A stretch of 40,340 bases of DNA, from IMG/VR virus record IMGVR_UViG_2872185964_000009; one strand, given 5' to 3'. Position numbers and translations under genes: made by a program. Positions 15,481 to 20,553 of this stretch are shown here, piece by piece (within the stretch, counting starts at the first letter, position 1; each line of letters starts with the position of its first letter). The notes below the pieces were generated by a model. It ran no database searches, was not told where the DNA came from, and saw nothing but the letters and a program-made list of their open reading frames with translations. Origin of the DNA: a virus (lineage: Duplodnaviria; Heunggongvirae; Uroviricota; Caudoviricetes).

Positions 15481-16010
15481 GATTGCCGGTGCAGTTGCGA
15501 TGGAAGACGCAAGCCTTACAACTAAAGGTGTTGTGAAACTTAGCAGTGCTGTTGATAGCACCAGTGAATCGCTGGCCGCAACGCCAAAAGCAGTTAAAGC
15601 AGCCAATGACAATGCGAATAGCAGGGTGCCATCTAACCGAAAAGTTAACGGAAAAGCATTGACTGCGGATATAACATTAACGCCGAAAGATATTGGTACT
15701 TTAAATTCAGTAACGATGTCTTTCTCTGGCGGGGCTGGGTGGTTCAAACTGGCTACGGTTACCATGCCACAAGCGAGTTCCATCGTTTACATCGCATTGA
15801 TTGGTGGCGCTGGTTACAACGTCGGTTCCCCACATCAGGCAGGCATTTCAGAACTGGTTCTACGAGCAGGTAATGGAAACCCCAAAGGAATTACCGGGCT
15901 TTGTGGAAGCGTACAGCCGTCGGATTAACGAATTTCGCCTGGATCAACACATCCGGCGATACATATGATATTTACGTTGAGATTGGCAATTATGCGGTAA
16001 TGACTCCAAC

Positions 16011-16388
16011 TTATTGATAGTGTTTTATGTTCAGATAATGCCCGATGACTTTGTCATGCAGCTCCACCGATTTTGAGAACGACAGCGACTTCCGTCCCAG
16101 CCGTGCCAGGTGCTGCCTCAGATTCAGGTTATGCCGCTCAATTCGCTGCGTATATCGCTTGCTGATTACGTGCAGCTTTCCCTTCAGGCGGGATTCATAC
16201 AGTGGCCAGCCATCCGTCATCCATATCACCACGTCAAAGGGTGACAGCAAGCTCATAAGACGCCCCAGCGTCGCCATAGTGCGTTCACCGAATACGTGCG
16301 CAACAACCGTCTTCCGGAGCCTGTCATACGCGTAAAACAGCCAGCGCTGGCGCGATTTAGCCCCGACGTATCCCCACTGTTCGTCCAT
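16011..16388 (-). CDS. insB: IS1 InsB reading frame
   Basis: 125-aa ORF identical to the InsB ORF of the IS1 at 24285. Confidence 0.9.
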
Positions 16389-16432
16389 TTCCGCGCAGAC
16401 GATGACGTCACTGCCCGGCTGTATGCGCGAGG

Positions 16433-16707
16433 TTACCGACTGCGGCCTGAGTTTTTTAAGTGACGTAAAATCGTGTTGAGGCTAACGCCCATAATGCGTG
16501 CAGTTGCCCGGCATCCAACGCCATTCATGGCCATATCAATAATTTTCTGGTGCGTACCGGGTTGAGAAGCGGTGTAAGTGAACTGCAGTTGCCATGTTTT
16601 ACGGCAGTGAGAGCAGAGATAGCGCTGATGTCCGGCAGTGCTTTTGCCGTTACGCACCACCCGTCAGTAGCTGAACAGGAGGGACAGCTGATAGAAACAG
16701 AAGCCAC
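16433..16707 (-). pseudogene. insA: IS1 InsA, frameshifted (C4 to C3 after codon 16)
   Basis: caccacccgtcag here versus caccaccccgtcag in the other copies. Confidence 0.85.
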
Positions 16708-18070
16708 TGGAGCACCTCAAAAACACCATCATACACTAAATCAGTAAGTTGGCAGCATCACCCAATTATGCGACGAGTGTAAATATCCATTGGGATTGTA
16801 CTGCAAATGCGTCAGTTTCTGTTTATACCTCGCCAACATATTCAGCGAGTAAGCCTTCCAGCGTTACCTATGGTGTTGTTTATACGATGTATAGCTCACA
16901 TCAGAAACCTACACCATCAGATATTGGAGCGCTGCCAACGACTGGAGGGACTATTTCAGGTCCGTTGTTTGTTACTGATGGGATCACCGGGCACTGAAGG
17001 GGAACGCCGATACCGCGACGAAACTTGCGGCAGCCCCAAAAATTAACGGTGTTAAGTTTGATGGCTCGGCGGATATTAACCTCACGCCGGAAAATATTGG
17101 TGCATTTGCCCGACGTTCGACGGGGCTTATGCGGATTCGGATGGAGCCGTTCCCTGGAATGCCGAATCAGGCGCTTACAATGTCACCCGCTCTGGCGACA
17201 GCTATATTCTGGTTAACTTCTATACCGGAGTCGGAAGTTGCCGGACCCTGCAGATGAAGGCGCATTACAGAAATGGTGGTCTGTTCTACCGTTCTTCAAG
17301 AGACGGTTATGGTTTTGAGGAAGGCTGGGCAGAAGTTTATACCTCGAAAAATCTTCCACCAGAAAGCTACCCAGTCGGCGCACCAATCCCGTGGCCATCA
17401 GATACCGTTCCGTCTGGTTATGCCCTGATGCAGGGGCAGACTTTTGACAAATCTGCTTACCCGAAACTTGCAGCCGCTTATCCGTCAGGCGTGATCCCTG
17501 ATATGCGTGGCTGGACGATTAAGGGCAAACCTGCCAGTGGTCGGGCCGTATTGTCTCAGGAACAGGACGGCATTAAATCGCACACCCACAGCGCCAGCGC
17601 ATCCAGTACGGATTTGGGGACGAAAACCACATCGTCGTTTGATTACGGCACTAAATCCACGAATAACACCGGGGCGCATACGCACAGTCTGAGTGGCTCT
17701 ACGGGGTCTGCCGGTGTTCATACTCATGGTAATGGTATTCGTTGGCCAGGAGGCGGCGGTTCTGCGTTAGCATTTTATGATGGCGGTGGGTTCACTTATG
17801 TCCAGAATTCACAGTATCAAGTAAGCCCGGGACTTCTTCCCGTAGATCGTATTATCAACGTATTCAGACACAGTCAGCAGGTGCTCATACCCACTCGCTG
17901 TCTGGTACTGCAGCAAGTTCTGGCGCACATGCACATACTGTAGGTATTGGTGCGCATACGCACTCCGTTGCGATTGGTTCACATGGACACACCATCACCG
18001 TTAACGCTGCGGGTAACGCGGAAAACACCGTCAAAAACATCGCATTTAACTATATTGTGAGGCTTGCATA

Positions 18071-18642
18071 ATGGCATTCAGAATGAGTGAACAAGCACGG
18101 ACCATAAAAATTTATAATCTGCTGGCCGGAACTAATGAATTTATTGGTGAAGGTGACGCATATATTCCGCCTCATACAGGTCTGCCAGCAAACAGTACCG
18201 ATATTGCACCACCAGATATTCCTGCTGGCTTTGTGGCTGTTTTCAACAGTGATGAGGCATCGTGGCATCTCGTTGAAGATCATCGGGGTAAAACGGTTTA
18301 TGACGTGGCTTCCGGCGACGCGTTATTTATTTCTGAACTCGGCTCATTACCGGGAAATGTCACTTGGTTATCCCGGAAGGGGAGTTTCAGAAGTGGAACG
18401 GCACAGCCTGGGTGAAGGATACGGAAGCAGAAAAACTCTTCCGGATCCGGGAGGCGGAAGAGAAAAAGACAAGATTAATCCAGGAAGCGACTGATAACAT
18501 AACAATTCTGCAGGATGCTGTTAATTTTGAAATGGCAACTGATGAGGAGGTTTCGATGCTATCTTCCTGGAAAAAATACCGGGTATTAGTGAGTCGGATT
18601 GATATAAATACAGCCCCGGATATCGTATGGCCTGAGCTGTGA
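18071..18642 (+). pseudogene. tfa: Tail fibre assembly protein (lambda Tfa-like), one frameshift near 18370
   Basis: [91 protein letters not shown].. then ..[28 protein letters not shown].. Confidence 0.85.
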
Positions 18643-18652
18643 TTAAACGGAA

Positions 18653-19198
18653 TTATGTGTGAGATGAATTATAAATAATTTCAGAGTGAAATTTGGTAAT
18701 GAATGTGGAGTCATCAGGAATGTCATGCAGTACCAATGCATGAGCTCCTATTTTTACATTATTCCCTATATGCACTTTGCCACCAAGGATGGTGGCGTTA
18801 CAGCCAATGGTTACATTATTTCCTATGACAATATCCATATCATTAAATTCACCGCGAAGTCCAATAGTTACCCCAGGCTTAATTGAACAATTTTCACCTA
18901 TTGTAACTTTGTGACCGATAACAACGCCATTGAGATAAGATATGTCGAACCCTTTACCAATATTTACAGTTAAGGGAACGGTTACATTGTATTTATCAAG
19001 AATGAAGCGTTCTATTTTTCCTGCAATCTTTCGCCGGTATCCGCCTTTATCAAAAAGATATTTTGCTATGCGCCACCAAAATAAATAACGTGATCTTCTG
19101 TGTTTTATTGCGCGAACAATTGCTTTTCGCCAGGAGAAAGGGCGTTTACAACCTATTACTTCATAGTGTATGCACTTTTTAAGTTCACTAATATTCAT
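18653..19198 (-). CDS. Hexapeptide-repeat (left-handed beta-helix) acyltransferase, CysE/WcaB-like; prophage moron
   Basis: 181-aa ORF with repeated [LIV]-G-x-x-x-x hexads (..VIGHKVTIGENCSIKPGVTIGL..IVIGNNVTIGCNATILGGKVHIGNNVKIGAHALVL..); markedly AT-rich; convergent with tfa. Confidence 0.8.
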   Translation of the reverse strand: MNISELKKCIHYEVIGCKRPFSWRKAIVRAIKHRRSRYLFWWRIAKYLFDKGGYRRKIAGKIERFILDKYNVTVPLTVNIGKGFDISYLNGVVIGHKVTIGENCSIKPGVTIGLRGEFNDMDIVIGNNVTIGCNATILGGKVHIGNNVKIGAHALVLHDIPDDSTFITKFHSEIIYNSSHT

Positions 19199-19358
19199 AT
19201 ATCTATTATTCAGTAAAGATAATTCTGTAACTTATTATTATATTAGGTTTAATGGGCTTTTTCTACAGTTTACTGTATTACTCTCACGCCGGAGCAATAG
19301 GCACAGGCCGGACGACAAATTGCATCAGGAGTTTCTCGCCAGAAGGTGGTGATCATCT

Positions 19359-19484
19359 ATGATGTTGGCGTATCGACTTTGTATAAGAAGTTTCCGGTCG
19401 GAGATGAATGAAACCGTAGCACGTCGTATGCAAGAACGTGCCACGGCTGGCTGGCGAACTTTCGATAGTGCGAGTATTGAATGA
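19359..19484 (+). CDS. Hypothetical 41-aa ORF (MMLAYRLCIRSFRSEMNETVARRMQERATAGWRTFDSASIE) with strong RBS; may not be a real gene
   Basis: AAGGTGGTGA 7 nt upstream of ATG; no recognisable homology. Confidence 0.2.
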   Translation: MMLAYRLCIRSFRSEMNETVARRMQERATAGWRTFDSASIE

Positions 19485-19514
19485 TTTCCAGCTGTTACCG
19501 ATTTTACGTGTTAA

Positions 19515-19763
19515 TTAGTGAAAAAACCACTCGTCAGCAGACTTCCAGGTATCTTTCAGAGTCTCCTGAACAAAAGTTTTAGCTGAATCTTTATCGGCGG
19601 TGCGCGTAACAGAAAGGCCATCGTTGCTGGTGGCTTTTACGATCACCTCTACATCGTCATAACGTTTACTGATGCGTCGGGTTAATTCTTCCTTTAACGC
19701 ATCCACAGCACCGTTTGGCATTTTAGTGATTTTTTCTTTAGCGATACAGATCTCAACACGCAT
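19515..19763 (-). CDS. DinI-like protein (prophage-encoded)
   Basis: [64 protein letters not shown] resembles DinI; RBS AGGAGGG retained; a LexA box lies on the other side of the IS1. Confidence 0.8.
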
Positions 19764-19831
19764 AACACCCTCCTGTGGTGATGCTGCCAACTTACTGATT
19801 TAGTGTATGATGGTGTTTTTGAGGTGCTCCA

Positions 19832-20107
19832 GTGGCTTCTGTTTCTATCAGCTGTCCCTCCTGTTCAGCTACTGACGGGGTGGTGCGTAACGGCAAAAGC
19901 ACTGCCGGACATCAGCGCTATCTCTGCTCTCACTGCCGTAAAACATGGCAACTGCAGTTCACTTACACCGCTTCTCAACCCGGTACGCACCAGAAAATTA
20001 TTGATATGGCCATGAATGGCGTTGGATGCCGGGCAACTGCACGCATTATGGGCGTTAGCCTCAACACGATTTTACGTCACTTAAAAAACTCAGGCCGCAG
20101 TCGGTAA
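19832..20107 (+). CDS. insA: IS1 InsA
   Basis: 91-aa ORF, GTG start, identical to the InsA of the other intact copies. Confidence 0.95.
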
Positions 20108-20151
20108 CCTCGCGCATACAGCCGGGCAGTGACGTCATCGTCTGCGCGGAA

Positions 20152-20529
20152 ATGGACGAACAGTGGGGATACGTCGGGGCTAAATCGCGCCAGCGCTGGC
20201 TGTTTTACGCGTATGACAGGCTCCGGAAGACGGTTGTTGCGCACGTATTCGGTGAACGCACTATGGCGACGCAGGGGCGTCTTATGAGCTTGCTGTCACC
20301 CTTTGACGTGGTGATATGGATGACGGATGGCTGGCCACTGTATGAATCCCGCCTGAAGGGAAAGCTGCACGTAATCAGCAAGCGATATACGCAGCGAATT
20401 GAGCGGCATAACCTGAATCTGAGGCAGCACCTGGCACGGCTGGGACGGAAGTCGCTGTCGTTCTCAAAATCGGTGGAGCTGCATGACAAAGTCATCGGGC
20501 ATTATCTGAACATAAAACACTATCAATAA
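20152..20529 (+). CDS. insB: IS1 InsB reading frame (expressed as InsAB' by -1 frameshift)
   Basis: 125-aa ORF; carries the MATQGRL variant shared with the IS1 at 34499. Confidence 0.95.
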
Positions 20530-20553
20530 GTTGGAGTCATTACCCCCTCCTGT

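Follow-up and report, generated by a model that had tools for sequence, protein, structure and literature searches.

A tail-fibre-linked gene for a beta-helix acyltransferase-like protein in a decayed lambda-like prophage

The systems with which the gene described here can be compared are the serine acetyltransferases (SAT, CysE), the shorter enzymes of the WcaB type and the surface-modifying proteins of temperate phages. CysE carries a C-terminal CysK-binding tail that ends in Ile. WcaB-type short CysE-like O-acetyltransferases act on lipid-linked sugar intermediates, and the sequence of WcaB keeps the catalytic His. The phage proteins Oac and Gtr are integral-membrane proteins of the acyltransferase-3 or Gtr type that act at the periplasmic face and are usually encoded beside int/att. 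The roles of the SAT active-site residues have been described for NgSAT (PMC8786284), and according to a 2011 review every crystallised beta-helix transferase had a catalytic His (PMC3046976). NeuO, from the E. coli K1 prophage CUS-3, is a beta-helix homotrimer that O-acetylates the K1 capsule (PMC3046976), and it raises phage resistance according to the title of a 2026 paper (PMC13001214). The gene itself is already catalogued but uncharacterised. It is listed, with no function assigned, in at least two papers (PMC6456863, PMC9603915), one of them for JL22, where U/S of P1 are replaced by tfa and the acyltransferase-like gene, of unknown function (PMC9603915). A literature search on the accession and on characterised tail-fibre-linked acetyltransferases returned no functional study.

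The gene lies in the 40,340-nt stretch of viral DNA analysed here (the window) as an intact ORF with an ATG start on the minus strand at 18653..19198. Its 181-aa product is 100% identical in an exact-sequence look-up to UniProt B2TVY8 of Shigella boydii, an entry named "serine acetyltransferase", and also identical to the product of the copy in E. coli B19374, which RefSeq annotates as WP_001026780.1. A Pfam profile scan matched PF00132 Hexapep (E=1.1e-13, 50.6 bits vs a cutoff of 27) and, slightly below its cutoff of 27, PF14602 Hexapep_2 (E=1.3e-5, 25.2 bits). The match to PHROG 2154, a family labelled "unknown function", is full-length (E=2.8e-77, residues 1-180 against positions 4-184 of a profile of 185). 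The AF2 model, calculated from an alignment of 70 sequences after an earlier run with 26 close homologues had given a pLDDT of 65.8 and a poor beta-helix, reached a pLDDT of 92.7 and consists of four N-terminal helices (residues 3-69) followed by a beta-helix, with short beta-strands from residue 71. Neither the Pfam scan nor the model revealed a membrane domain. The top 50 Foldseek matches in the PDB are all beta-helix SATs (TM ~0.7 for the top hits), and CysE shares 24-34% identity with the protein over the beta-helix and the last helices; the best match in the BFVD viral fold search (E=7e-4, TM 0.42) was uninformative. The hexapeptide-repeat ORF pointed out in an earlier note on this DNA is thus real according to both the Hexapep match and the model, and the protein is a left-handed beta-helix hexapeptide-repeat transferase of the CysE/WcaB branch that by homology should be a trimer. 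The best NCBIfam models are EpsC (85 bits vs a cutoff of 150), CysE (TIGR01172, 76.9 vs 210.65; NF008349, 52.9 vs 397) and WcaB (NF007564, 60.4 vs 196; TIGR04016, 59.4 vs 194.65), all below their cutoffs. Models for Vat, CatB, Maa and LacA match weakly, with 24-34 bits, of which Maa and LacA account for only 30-34 bits. The assignment to a CysE/WcaB/LacA type made in the earlier note can be retained for CysE and WcaB, on the NCBIfam and Foldseek results, but not for LacA.

Three features go beyond what had been noted before, of which the first two, an active site that is not that of a SAT and the replacement of the catalytic pair, concern the catalytic residues. The NgSAT residues D147, D161, H162, E170, R196 and H197 correspond to T73, S87, Y88, H96, M121 and D122, so that all six mapped positions differ. 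In E. coli numbering, Asp143/His158 and Asp157/Arg192/His193 are replaced by T73, Y88, S87, M121 and D122; Tyr88 is aligned with His162 of NgSAT and with His158 of the E. coli enzyme. The serine-binding D/R/H residues are missing from the alignment of the whole phage family. All 83 distant homologues have the His of the catalytic column, as do 112 of the 118 sequences of the representatives alignment, its loss being confined to the clade to which the window protein belongs (the Tyr clade) and to three isolated non-His representatives. Three active-site columns have changed together in this clade, D/E73 to T/K/V, H88 to Y and D/E96 to H/R/L, and in the window's subclade the near-universal catalytic His/Asp pair is replaced by Tyr88/Thr73. 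The protein differs from typical members of the fold in that the canonical His and its acidic partner are missing, and because the canonical general base is absent enzymatic activity is uncertain. Possible substitutes are His96 and His153, the latter specific to the family; His96 is variable within the clade, with Arg or Leu in three members (P0013-P0015). All 13 members of the clade, with identities as low as 53%, have Tyr88; this invariance suggests that the residue has a specific chemical role rather than that constraint has been relaxed. Coil glycines and core positions of the beta-helix are kept throughout, as in active relatives. The clade is under strong purifying selection, with dN/dS values of 0.073, 0.052 and 0.050 at dS up to 0.66 or more, which indicates that some function is retained.

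The gene stands out by its base composition. An AT-rich block had been proposed for 18643-19515, and this is correct for 18643..19275, a stretch of 633 bp that comprises gene, leader and promoter and has a GC content of 0.346 vs 0.518 for the window; the remainder, 19276-19515, holds an invertase remnant and is not AT-rich (GC 0.475). Among windows of the same size the standard deviation of GC is 0.054 and 1.3% are as AT-rich as this block, the lowest values of the whole stretch clustering near 32.8-33.0 kb. The GC content of the ORF is 0.363 and that of the 77 bp upstream of it 0.234. These 77 bp include the sigma-70-like promoter proposed before, TAGAAA-17-TATAAT (19265..19237, minus strand), which matches the consensus at 10 of 12 positions about 38 nt upstream of the ATG and is the best sigma-70 match of the region. 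Since 8 promoter-like sites were counted in the region vs 3.8 +/- 2.0 in shuffled sequences, the match alone is weak evidence. Three other copies (B19374, the Escherichia phage vB_EcoM-613R2 and a P1-like contig) have the identical -35 hexamer and either TATAAT or TACAAT as the -10, and diverge in the sequence upstream of the -35, so the hexamers of the predicted promoter are conserved and the gene appears to have a promoter of its own. Since it is read from this promoter against the late operon, with tfa on the plus strand, the gene is probably expressed in the lysogen. A clear Shine-Dalgarno sequence was not found for the ORF. The terminator scan gave no intrinsic terminator; its single hit, a weak hairpin on the plus strand within the ORF, does not exceed chance expectation. 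Rfam yielded nothing beyond a match to IS009 inside tfa that is below threshold and a weak, partial match to CssrB. Tandem repeats at the 5' end like those of neuO are absent; direct repeats in 17800-19900 are limited to three copies of 23 nt, spaced apart, which result from the coding periodicity of the hexapeptides.

The host element is a decayed lambda-like prophage. Directly before the AT-rich block lies tfa (18071..18642, plus strand; Caudo_TAP E=2.6e-32), a pseudogene with a frameshift between the frames 18071-18415 and 18364-18642, which is the single gap when 17874-19776 is aligned to the intact locus of E. coli B19374. On the other side, at 19283..19410 on the plus strand, is the 3' remnant of a DNA invertase of the pin/gin/cin family, with no 5' part and with a translation that reads ...TPEQ, an in-frame stop, AQAGRQIASGVSRQKVVIIYDVGVSTLYKKFPVGDE and a final stop. 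It shares 94% nucleotide identity with the pinE 3' end of E. coli Z1323CEC0002, where pinE is annotated within a canonical invertible tail-fibre segment, stf-tfa-(inverted tfa'/fibre)-pinE; in B19374 the remnant is annotated as a truncated HTH pseudogene. The end of the prophage is formed by a DinI-like gene (19515..19763, minus strand, coordinates from the B19374 annotation; PF06183 E=1.5e-18, NF007893 E=1e-18). Comparison of IS1 copies by blastn located one copy at 19809..20544, between dinI and a frameshifted btsS and colinear with B19374, which marks the junction of the decayed prophage and the chromosome, and, together with the ORF list, another at 15996..16730, which interrupts the side-tail-fibre gene upstream of tfa. 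Amid the broken tfa, stf and btsS the acyltransferase-like gene is intact. Of 5426 complete E. coli genomes, 29 have the arrangement tfa, ORF, dinI, btsS, with 98.7-99.6% identity, and more than 4000 genomes have parts of the tfa-to-dinI stretch that was used as query. Since 29 complete genomes show this same order of genes, an assembly chimera was rejected; the block is present in related prophages, and instead of a housekeeping match in a conserved chromosomal context we found the tail-fibre region of a prophage. The gene thus combines deviant composition, a promoter of its own and a patchy distribution among related prophages, as expected of a moron, and its description as AT-rich accessory cargo is upheld.

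The third new feature is that the gene belongs to a tail-fibre cassette. The earlier note was right that it lies between tfa and the dinI-like gene, but it is not a simple insertion there: blastn blocks delimit a unit at 17880..19272 that comprises the 3' end of the side-tail-fibre gene, tfa, the acyltransferase-like gene and its promoter, and in the window this unit abuts the truncated pin gene. In the 26.6-kb record of vB_EcoM-613R2 it is matched by one continuous block (85.0% over 1389 nt). The P1-like contig has two adjacent blocks (83.8% and 84.1%), interrupted solely at an internal deletion of that copy. The identities of tfa and the acyltransferase co-vary across phages. Relatives follow tfa directly and convergently in this lambdoid prophage, the P1-like contig, vB_EcoM-613R2, a P2-like contig, Hafnia phage yong2, Citrobacter phiNP and another prophage of the baseplate type. 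In plasmid records 90-92% identical copies overlap the tfa annotation, and in some copies the 3' ends of tfa and the acyltransferase-like gene overlap. Judged from these alignments, the cassette of fibre tip, tfa, gene and promoter appears to move between unrelated phages as one unit rather than by free insertion, although the linkage to tfa could instead reflect a shared insertion hotspot. His-type and Tyr-type proteins share the niche beside tfa.

Other relatives are found beside integrases, away from fibres or in non-phage contexts. Those on conjugative IncI/K/F plasmids (37-39% identity) are among accessory genes beside a ProQ/FinO gene and not beside plasmid-encoded adhesin genes, for which reason an analogy with plasmid adhesins was dropped. 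A Salmonella relative is inside the tail-fibre region and overlaps a gene of that region other than tfa; about 750 bp away lies a gene for a protein that matches Pfam GT_STM0557_N. The closest His-type representative adjoins dinI and a WaaI-like GT8 glycosyltransferase of the LPS-core type. These two LPS-gene neighbourhoods are anecdotes that hint at a link to LPS. No polysaccharide cluster was seen in the context of the nearest homologues outside the family (P0038 and P0044); P0044 adjoins a gene for a PALP-domain (PLP-dependent) enzyme, which would fit a real short SAT. Intact ORFs of the family recur in Escherichia, Shigella, Hafnia, Citrobacter, Salmonella and Kosakonia, as well as in several types of phage and plasmid. 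The exact protein sequence occurs on 542 contigs, the 90% cluster has 783 members and 58 phage-plasmids are carriers. An identical protein is found in S. boydii and several E. coli lineages, which argues against a serotype-specific O-antigen target.

In view of the above, we tentatively favour a cassette-borne moron encoding an acyltransferase that is expressed in lysogeny and acts on an envelope glycan, thereby altering a phage receptor or antigen. Transcribed from its own sigma-70 promoter, the gene would yield a soluble cytoplasmic enzyme in which a short four-helix cap precedes the beta-helix. This enzyme may transfer an acyl (acetyl) group from acyl-CoA to a glycan precursor at the cytoplasmic face of the envelope. 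The substrate cannot be read from the sequence, as had been stated before; candidate acceptors are the LPS core and an undecaprenyl-linked O-unit or exopolysaccharide unit, comparable to the role reported for WcaB in colanic acid. The modified glycan would change a phage receptor or surface antigen, with lysogenic conversion or superinfection exclusion, possibly by receptor masking, as the outcome. The window's subclade would work, if at all, with a non-canonical active site of Tyr88/Thr73, in which His96 or His153 could stand in for the catalytic His. A more specific version, which we consider doubtful, is that fibre tip, tfa and gene form a "bind-and-mask" module in which the acyltransferase-like protein masks the receptor of the co-transferred tip, probably an LPS-core sugar, and in which the window's clade uses a His-independent mechanism based on Tyr88 or a relocated His. 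We know of no description of histidine-independent O-acyl transfer by the beta-helix fold.

Other explanations should be weighed against this. If the protein were a true serine O-acetyltransferase, its gene would be an auxiliary metabolic gene boosting the cysteine synthesis of the lysogen. The RefSeq/PGAP and UniRef names say so and, among solved structures, SATs are the nearest in both sequence and fold, yet this is barely credible: the CysE scores are far under the cutoffs, all mapped active-site residues differ, the serine-binding residues are missing in the whole phage family, SATase_N (PF06426) is not matched, only four N-terminal helices are present where SAT chains have 240-310 residues, and the C-terminus, ...SSHT, is not an Ile-terminated CysK-binding tail. 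A genuine CysE was rejected on the score cutoffs, the domain absence and the active-site mapping. Alternatively the protein, like LacA, Maa, Vat or CatB, might acetylate a small molecule, be it a xenobiotic, an antibiotic, a sugar or a metabolite; the lysogen would then profit through detoxification or in its metabolism, independently of phage receptors. The weak matches to these four families, a fold that accepts many small molecules, the occurrence of the same protein in hosts with different surface antigens and the relatives among plasmid accessory genes would all be consistent with this. However, the protein resembles the xenobiotic and Maa/LacA branches solely in generic hexapeptide coils, the catalytic His of all those enzymes is missing and detoxification does not predict a persistent linkage to tail fibres across phage types, so that we regard such a role as unlikely.

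The concerted change of columns 73, 88 and 96, confined to one clade bar three isolated representatives, together with a catalytic His in all crystallised transferases of the fold (PMC3046976) and a function retained under purifying selection, would also suit a pseudoenzyme that binds acyl-CoA or a host or phage partner and acts as regulator, inhibitor or (anti-)defence factor. This is rather improbable in our opinion: glycines and core positions are conserved as in active relatives, the invariance of Tyr88 suggests chemistry, the shared niche of His-type and Tyr-type proteins suggests a common biological role, and no PADLOC-DB 2.0 family was matched at E<=0.01, which leaves the defence function suggested in the earlier note unsupported. 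The tight linkage and co-divergence with tfa and fibre tip, and the overlap of 3' ends in some copies, would fit a role in the lytic cycle or virion, such as late envelope modification that frees progeny from debris or modification of a fibre component. The orientation against the late operon, the conserved promoter, the foreign AT-rich composition typical of morons, the relatives beside integrases away from fibres and the survival of the gene in a prophage with dead tail genes make this improbable. Finally, the gene could be functionless for phage and host, a neutral passenger at a hotspot of recombination or insertion that lies downstream of tfa; cargo is known to occur where the late operon ends, and the cassette junction is at a degraded invertase gene. 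In view of dN/dS values of 0.05-0.07, the recurrence of intact ORFs across several hosts, phage and plasmid types, and the conserved promoter, this is very improbable.

Surface-modifying enzymes of prophages change serotype, vaccine epitopes and phage susceptibility, and the present family is uniformly mis-named "serine acetyltransferase" in databases. If the protein masks the receptor of the fibre with which it moves, this would explain the extra gene in tail-fibre swaps among lambdoid, P1-like and P2-like phages and would be relevant to host-range prediction in phage therapy. If receptor and mask are matched in the cassette, any phage that gains the fibre by recombination would also gain the corresponding superinfection exclusion. 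A mundane detoxification role would turn the gene into a routine cargo annotation. The concerted loss of the His/Asp pair under purifying selection is a clean case for testing whether beta-helix transferases adopt another kind of catalysis or evolve into pseudoenzymes.

Compared with known systems, the locus corresponds in position to the invertible G, C and P segments of Mu, P1 and e14 (gin, cin, pin), as a 3' remnant of pin is found beside the cassette. Here, however, the locus has neither the alternative fibre half nor the invertase's 5' part, and the acyltransferase-like gene is found in their place, so that host-range switching by inversion is lost. CysE provides the closest solved fold and is the source of the database name, but the window protein lacks the full N-terminal domain, the catalytic Asp/His, the serine-binding Asp/Arg/His and the CysK tail, and its gene has a phage rather than a housekeeping context. 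With WcaB/EpsC-type enzymes, its best-scoring named families after CysE, it shares the short helical N-terminus followed by a beta-helix, a length of about 160-190 aa and a cytoplasmic location; it differs in scoring far under the cutoffs and in being encoded outside a polysaccharide or wca cluster. Oac of Sf6 and GtrABC/GtrC of P22-like phages are functional models, as cargo of temperate phages expressed in the lysogen that alters an LPS receptor or antigen (PMC3630932, PMC4413052), although the window protein shows no such membrane domain and its gene is usually beside tfa. NeuO is a member of the Maa/LacA/OatWY branch with both a His and a Trp in catalysis and is phase-variable via 5' heptanucleotide repeats (PMC3046976), whereas the window gene is CysE/WcaB-like and has neither such repeats nor the catalytic His. 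Yet both are prophage cargo encoding soluble left-handed beta-helix transferases, a homotrimer in NeuO and a probable trimer here, and the role of NeuO, capsule O-acetylation and, according to the title of the 2026 paper, raised phage resistance, is the role proposed for the window gene.

The 181-aa reading frame of hexapeptide repeats proposed in the earlier note is real (18653-19198, minus strand; Pfam Hexapep E=1.1e-13) and lies, as had been stated, between tfa, which is frameshifted and ends at 18642 (+), and a DinI-like gene identified by a profile match (19515-19763, -). The AT-rich block described for this position was also recovered: 18643-19275 has a GC content of 0.346 versus 0.518 for the window, among the lowest 1.3% of equal-size windows. 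The sole other equally AT-rich stretch, at about 32750-33600 (GC 0.33), is in the chromosomal part and matches the yeh fimbrial/metG/apbC region of E. coli. The suggested promoter, TAGAAA-17-TATAAT at 19265..19237 (-), is the region's best match in a sigma-70 scan (10/12). On its own such a match is weak, because the region contains 8 promoter-like sites where 3.8 are expected; three further copies of the element keep its hexamers but diverge just upstream of the -35. In the 3' half of tfa, 18413-18611 (+) matches Rfam IS009 (RF02111) over the full model length but below threshold (91 bits versus a gathering score of 117, E=1e-20), which probably reflects tfa homology and not an independent sRNA.

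The AT-rich block is part of a larger mobile unit. Window positions 17880-19272, which run from the fibre tip through tfa and the acyltransferase gene to the -35 hexamer of its promoter, are matched as a single block by Escherichia phage vB_EcoM-613R2 (85% identical), and a P1-like contig carries the cassette (84% identical) with R/S/U-type fibre genes on one side and the lydAB-darA operon on the other. A 90-92% identical copy occurs in 58 plasmid records; among the plasmid matches listed, sizes are 47-50 kb and 90-119 kb, and almost all overlap a tfa annotation. In the P1-like element JL22, as published, tfa has replaced U and part of S together with a "serine acetyltransferase" to which the description assigns no purpose (PMC9603915). 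Relatives at 42-58% identity likewise stand directly after tfa and convergent with it in a P2-like prophage contig (L015), a baseplate-type myophage contig (L006), another baseplate-type prophage, Hafnia phage yong2 and Citrobacter phiNP, the last of these entered as "fitness" cargo (PMC6456863). A Salmonella relative is inside a tail-fibre region and overlaps a gene of that region other than tfa. A minority of relatives have P2/186-like prophage integrases as neighbours or occupy small chromosomal islets. Pairwise identities of acyltransferase and Tfa co-vary (92/86, 52/58, 43/56, 51/70 and 98/96%), which indicates long-term linkage. In phiNP (L004, 643-1256) the gene is flanked by tfa on one side and by a hicAB toxin-antitoxin pair on the other, and a dinI-like gene lies a little further on, so that one fibre-end cargo slot gathers several morons. 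In protein P0009 of P1-like contig L016 (5001-5471), 25 aa between two repeated VTIG coils are deleted in frame; since this removes more than one beta-helix turn, the copy is probably inactive, or else the assembly collapsed.

Between the gene and dinI lies what is left of a Pin/Gin/Cin invertase gene (19283-19410, +). Its translation (...VVIIYDVGVSTLYKKFPVGDE*) yields the C-terminal HTH and contains an in-frame stop; the 5' part is missing, and the stretch shares 94% identity with the 3' end of pinE. An intact comparator has the canonical invertible layout, stf'-tfa-(inverted tfa and fibre)-pinE. In the window the acyltransferase gene stands in place of the alternative half of the fibre and of pin's 5' part. 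An invertible tail-fibre segment was once present in the prophage or took part in recombination with it, and the switch has since been lost. The same lambdoid prophage is present beside btsS in E. coli B19374, ETEC H10407 and 27 more (29 of 5426 complete genomes), in the order J, lom, stf, tfa, acyltransferase gene, truncated HTH pseudogene, dinI, btsS. The window is a Shigella-type chromosome rich in IS1, with five full copies and one partial within 40 kb (1-309, 15996-16730, 19809-20544, 24285-25020, 25115-25849 and 34496-35234); one copy splits the side-tail-fibre gene stf, another lies between dinI and the frameshifted btsS, and two are only about 95 bp apart. This load and the many pseudogenes (tfa, stf and btsS among them) represent Shigella-type IS expansion. 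With tfa frameshifted and stf broken, the acyltransferase gene is intact and its product matches the B19374 protein at every residue; an exact-sequence look-up gave the Shigella boydii entry UniProt B2TVY8 and 542 contigs that carry this sequence.

An AlphaFold model from a 70-sequence alignment (pLDDT 92.7) has four N-terminal helices (3-69) followed by a left-handed beta-helix, and the closest solved folds are serine acetyltransferases (SATs; TM ~0.7, 24-34% identity). Together with the Hexapep match this upholds the assignment to acyltransferases of the CysE/WcaB type, and the protein is placed with short CysE/WcaB-like enzymes. All named NCBIfam families score far under cutoff (EpsC 85 bits versus 150, CysE 77 versus 211, WcaB 60 versus 196); the full-length match is to PHROG 2154 ("unknown function", E=2.8e-77). 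Active-site residues of the N. gonorrhoeae SAT (PMC8786284) were mapped through an alignment. The catalytic pair Asp147/His162 corresponds to Thr73 and Tyr88, the serine-binding residues Asp161, Arg196 and His197 to Ser87, Met121 and Asp122, and Glu170 to His96; a seventh listed residue, Asp96 of the N-terminal domain, is outside this set. As all six differ, the database name is unsupported, and a true SAT is the least credible of the readings considered. A short SAT-like gene of 275 enterobacterial plasmids, mostly conjugative or mobilisable, is 37-39% identical, has the canonical Asp/His pair and carries the same name; we know of no characterisation of it. In the two plasmids examined, IncK2/Z of Shigella sonnei (L018, 5875-6462) and IncFIB of E. 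coli O55:H7 (L019, 5932-6519), it stands beside a ProQ/FinO-family gene.

The replacement of the catalytic pair is specific to a clade. In the alignment of the enterobacterial phage family (~35 members), columns 73 and 88 define two subclades: 19 members have an acidic residue at 73 and His at 88, while in the 13 nearest the window protein, which reach down to 53% identity, column 73 is Thr, Lys or Val, column 88 is always Tyr, and His (n=10), Arg or Leu replaces the usual Asp/Glu at column 96. All 83 more distant homologues have His88, as do 112 of 118 sequences of an alignment of 113 representatives (1.84-billion-protein library, 50% identity clusters) plus five family sequences, the exceptions being three of the Tyr clade and three singletons. 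Within the clade dN/dS is 0.073 (window versus 613R2, dS 0.66), 0.052 and 0.050. These substitution patterns indicate that the clade is not decaying, which makes a neutral hitchhiker very improbable; the protein, with its non-canonical site, therefore has some selected role. Catalysis may have passed to Tyr88, His96 or the family-specific His153, or the chemistry or role may have changed; a pseudoenzyme or binding role is rather unlikely.

The orientation against the late operon, the conserved sigma-70 promoter, the foreign composition, the patchy distribution and the retention in a dead prophage fit a moron that would be expressed in lysogeny, and a lytic-cycle role is improbable. A defence function, also raised earlier, gained no support, as no PADLOC defence model matched the protein. 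The proposal of a surface polysaccharide altered by a prophage acetyltransferase is in line with the linkage to receptor-binding modules; the target is conjectural. Short CysE/WcaB-like proteins are cytoplasmic enzymes that acetylate lipid-linked sugar intermediates, and the link to receptor-binding modules suggests that the product could acylate an envelope glycan serving as phage receptor. We tentatively favour such acylation, with receptor or antigen change, at somewhat less than an even chance. The neighbourhoods of two relatives hint at LPS. The closest His-type representative, with the usual His88, is in a chromosomal islet (L022, 6001-8131; GCA_000307305.1) with a DinI gene and a WaaI-like GT8 glycosyltransferase of the LPS-core type (267 bits, under the equivalog cutoff of 461); the islet adjoins a DUF3413/sulfatase gene, which we take to be yejM, and is possibly a prophage remnant modifying the LPS core. 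The Salmonella relative is ~750 bp from a gene whose product matches Pfam GT_STM0557_N, presumably an O-antigen-modification glycosyltransferase. That hosts of differing O-antigens carry the identical protein speaks for a conserved target (the core, for example) or a non-glycan one; a small-molecule acceptor is unlikely, if less so than a binding role.

Databases already list the gene, at least two papers mention it without characterisation (PMC6456863, PMC9603915), and prophage beta-helix acyltransferase cargo is a known kind of element. Three points are new here: the SAT annotation is refuted; a cassette structure ties the gene to the exchange of tail fibres and to the disappearance of the invertible segment; and one clade has replaced the catalytic pair while under purifying selection. 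A "bind-and-mask" arrangement, in which the acyltransferase masks the receptor recognised by the co-transferred fibre tip, or a His-independent mechanism would, if true, raise the interest of the gene. A precedent for the modification of an envelope glycan is NeuO of prophage CUS-3, like the window protein a beta-helix transferase, which O-acetylates a surface glycan, the K1 capsule (PMC3046976), and according to the title of a further report raises phage resistance (PMC13001214). The Oac and Gtr systems, which are membrane-bound, are further precedents.
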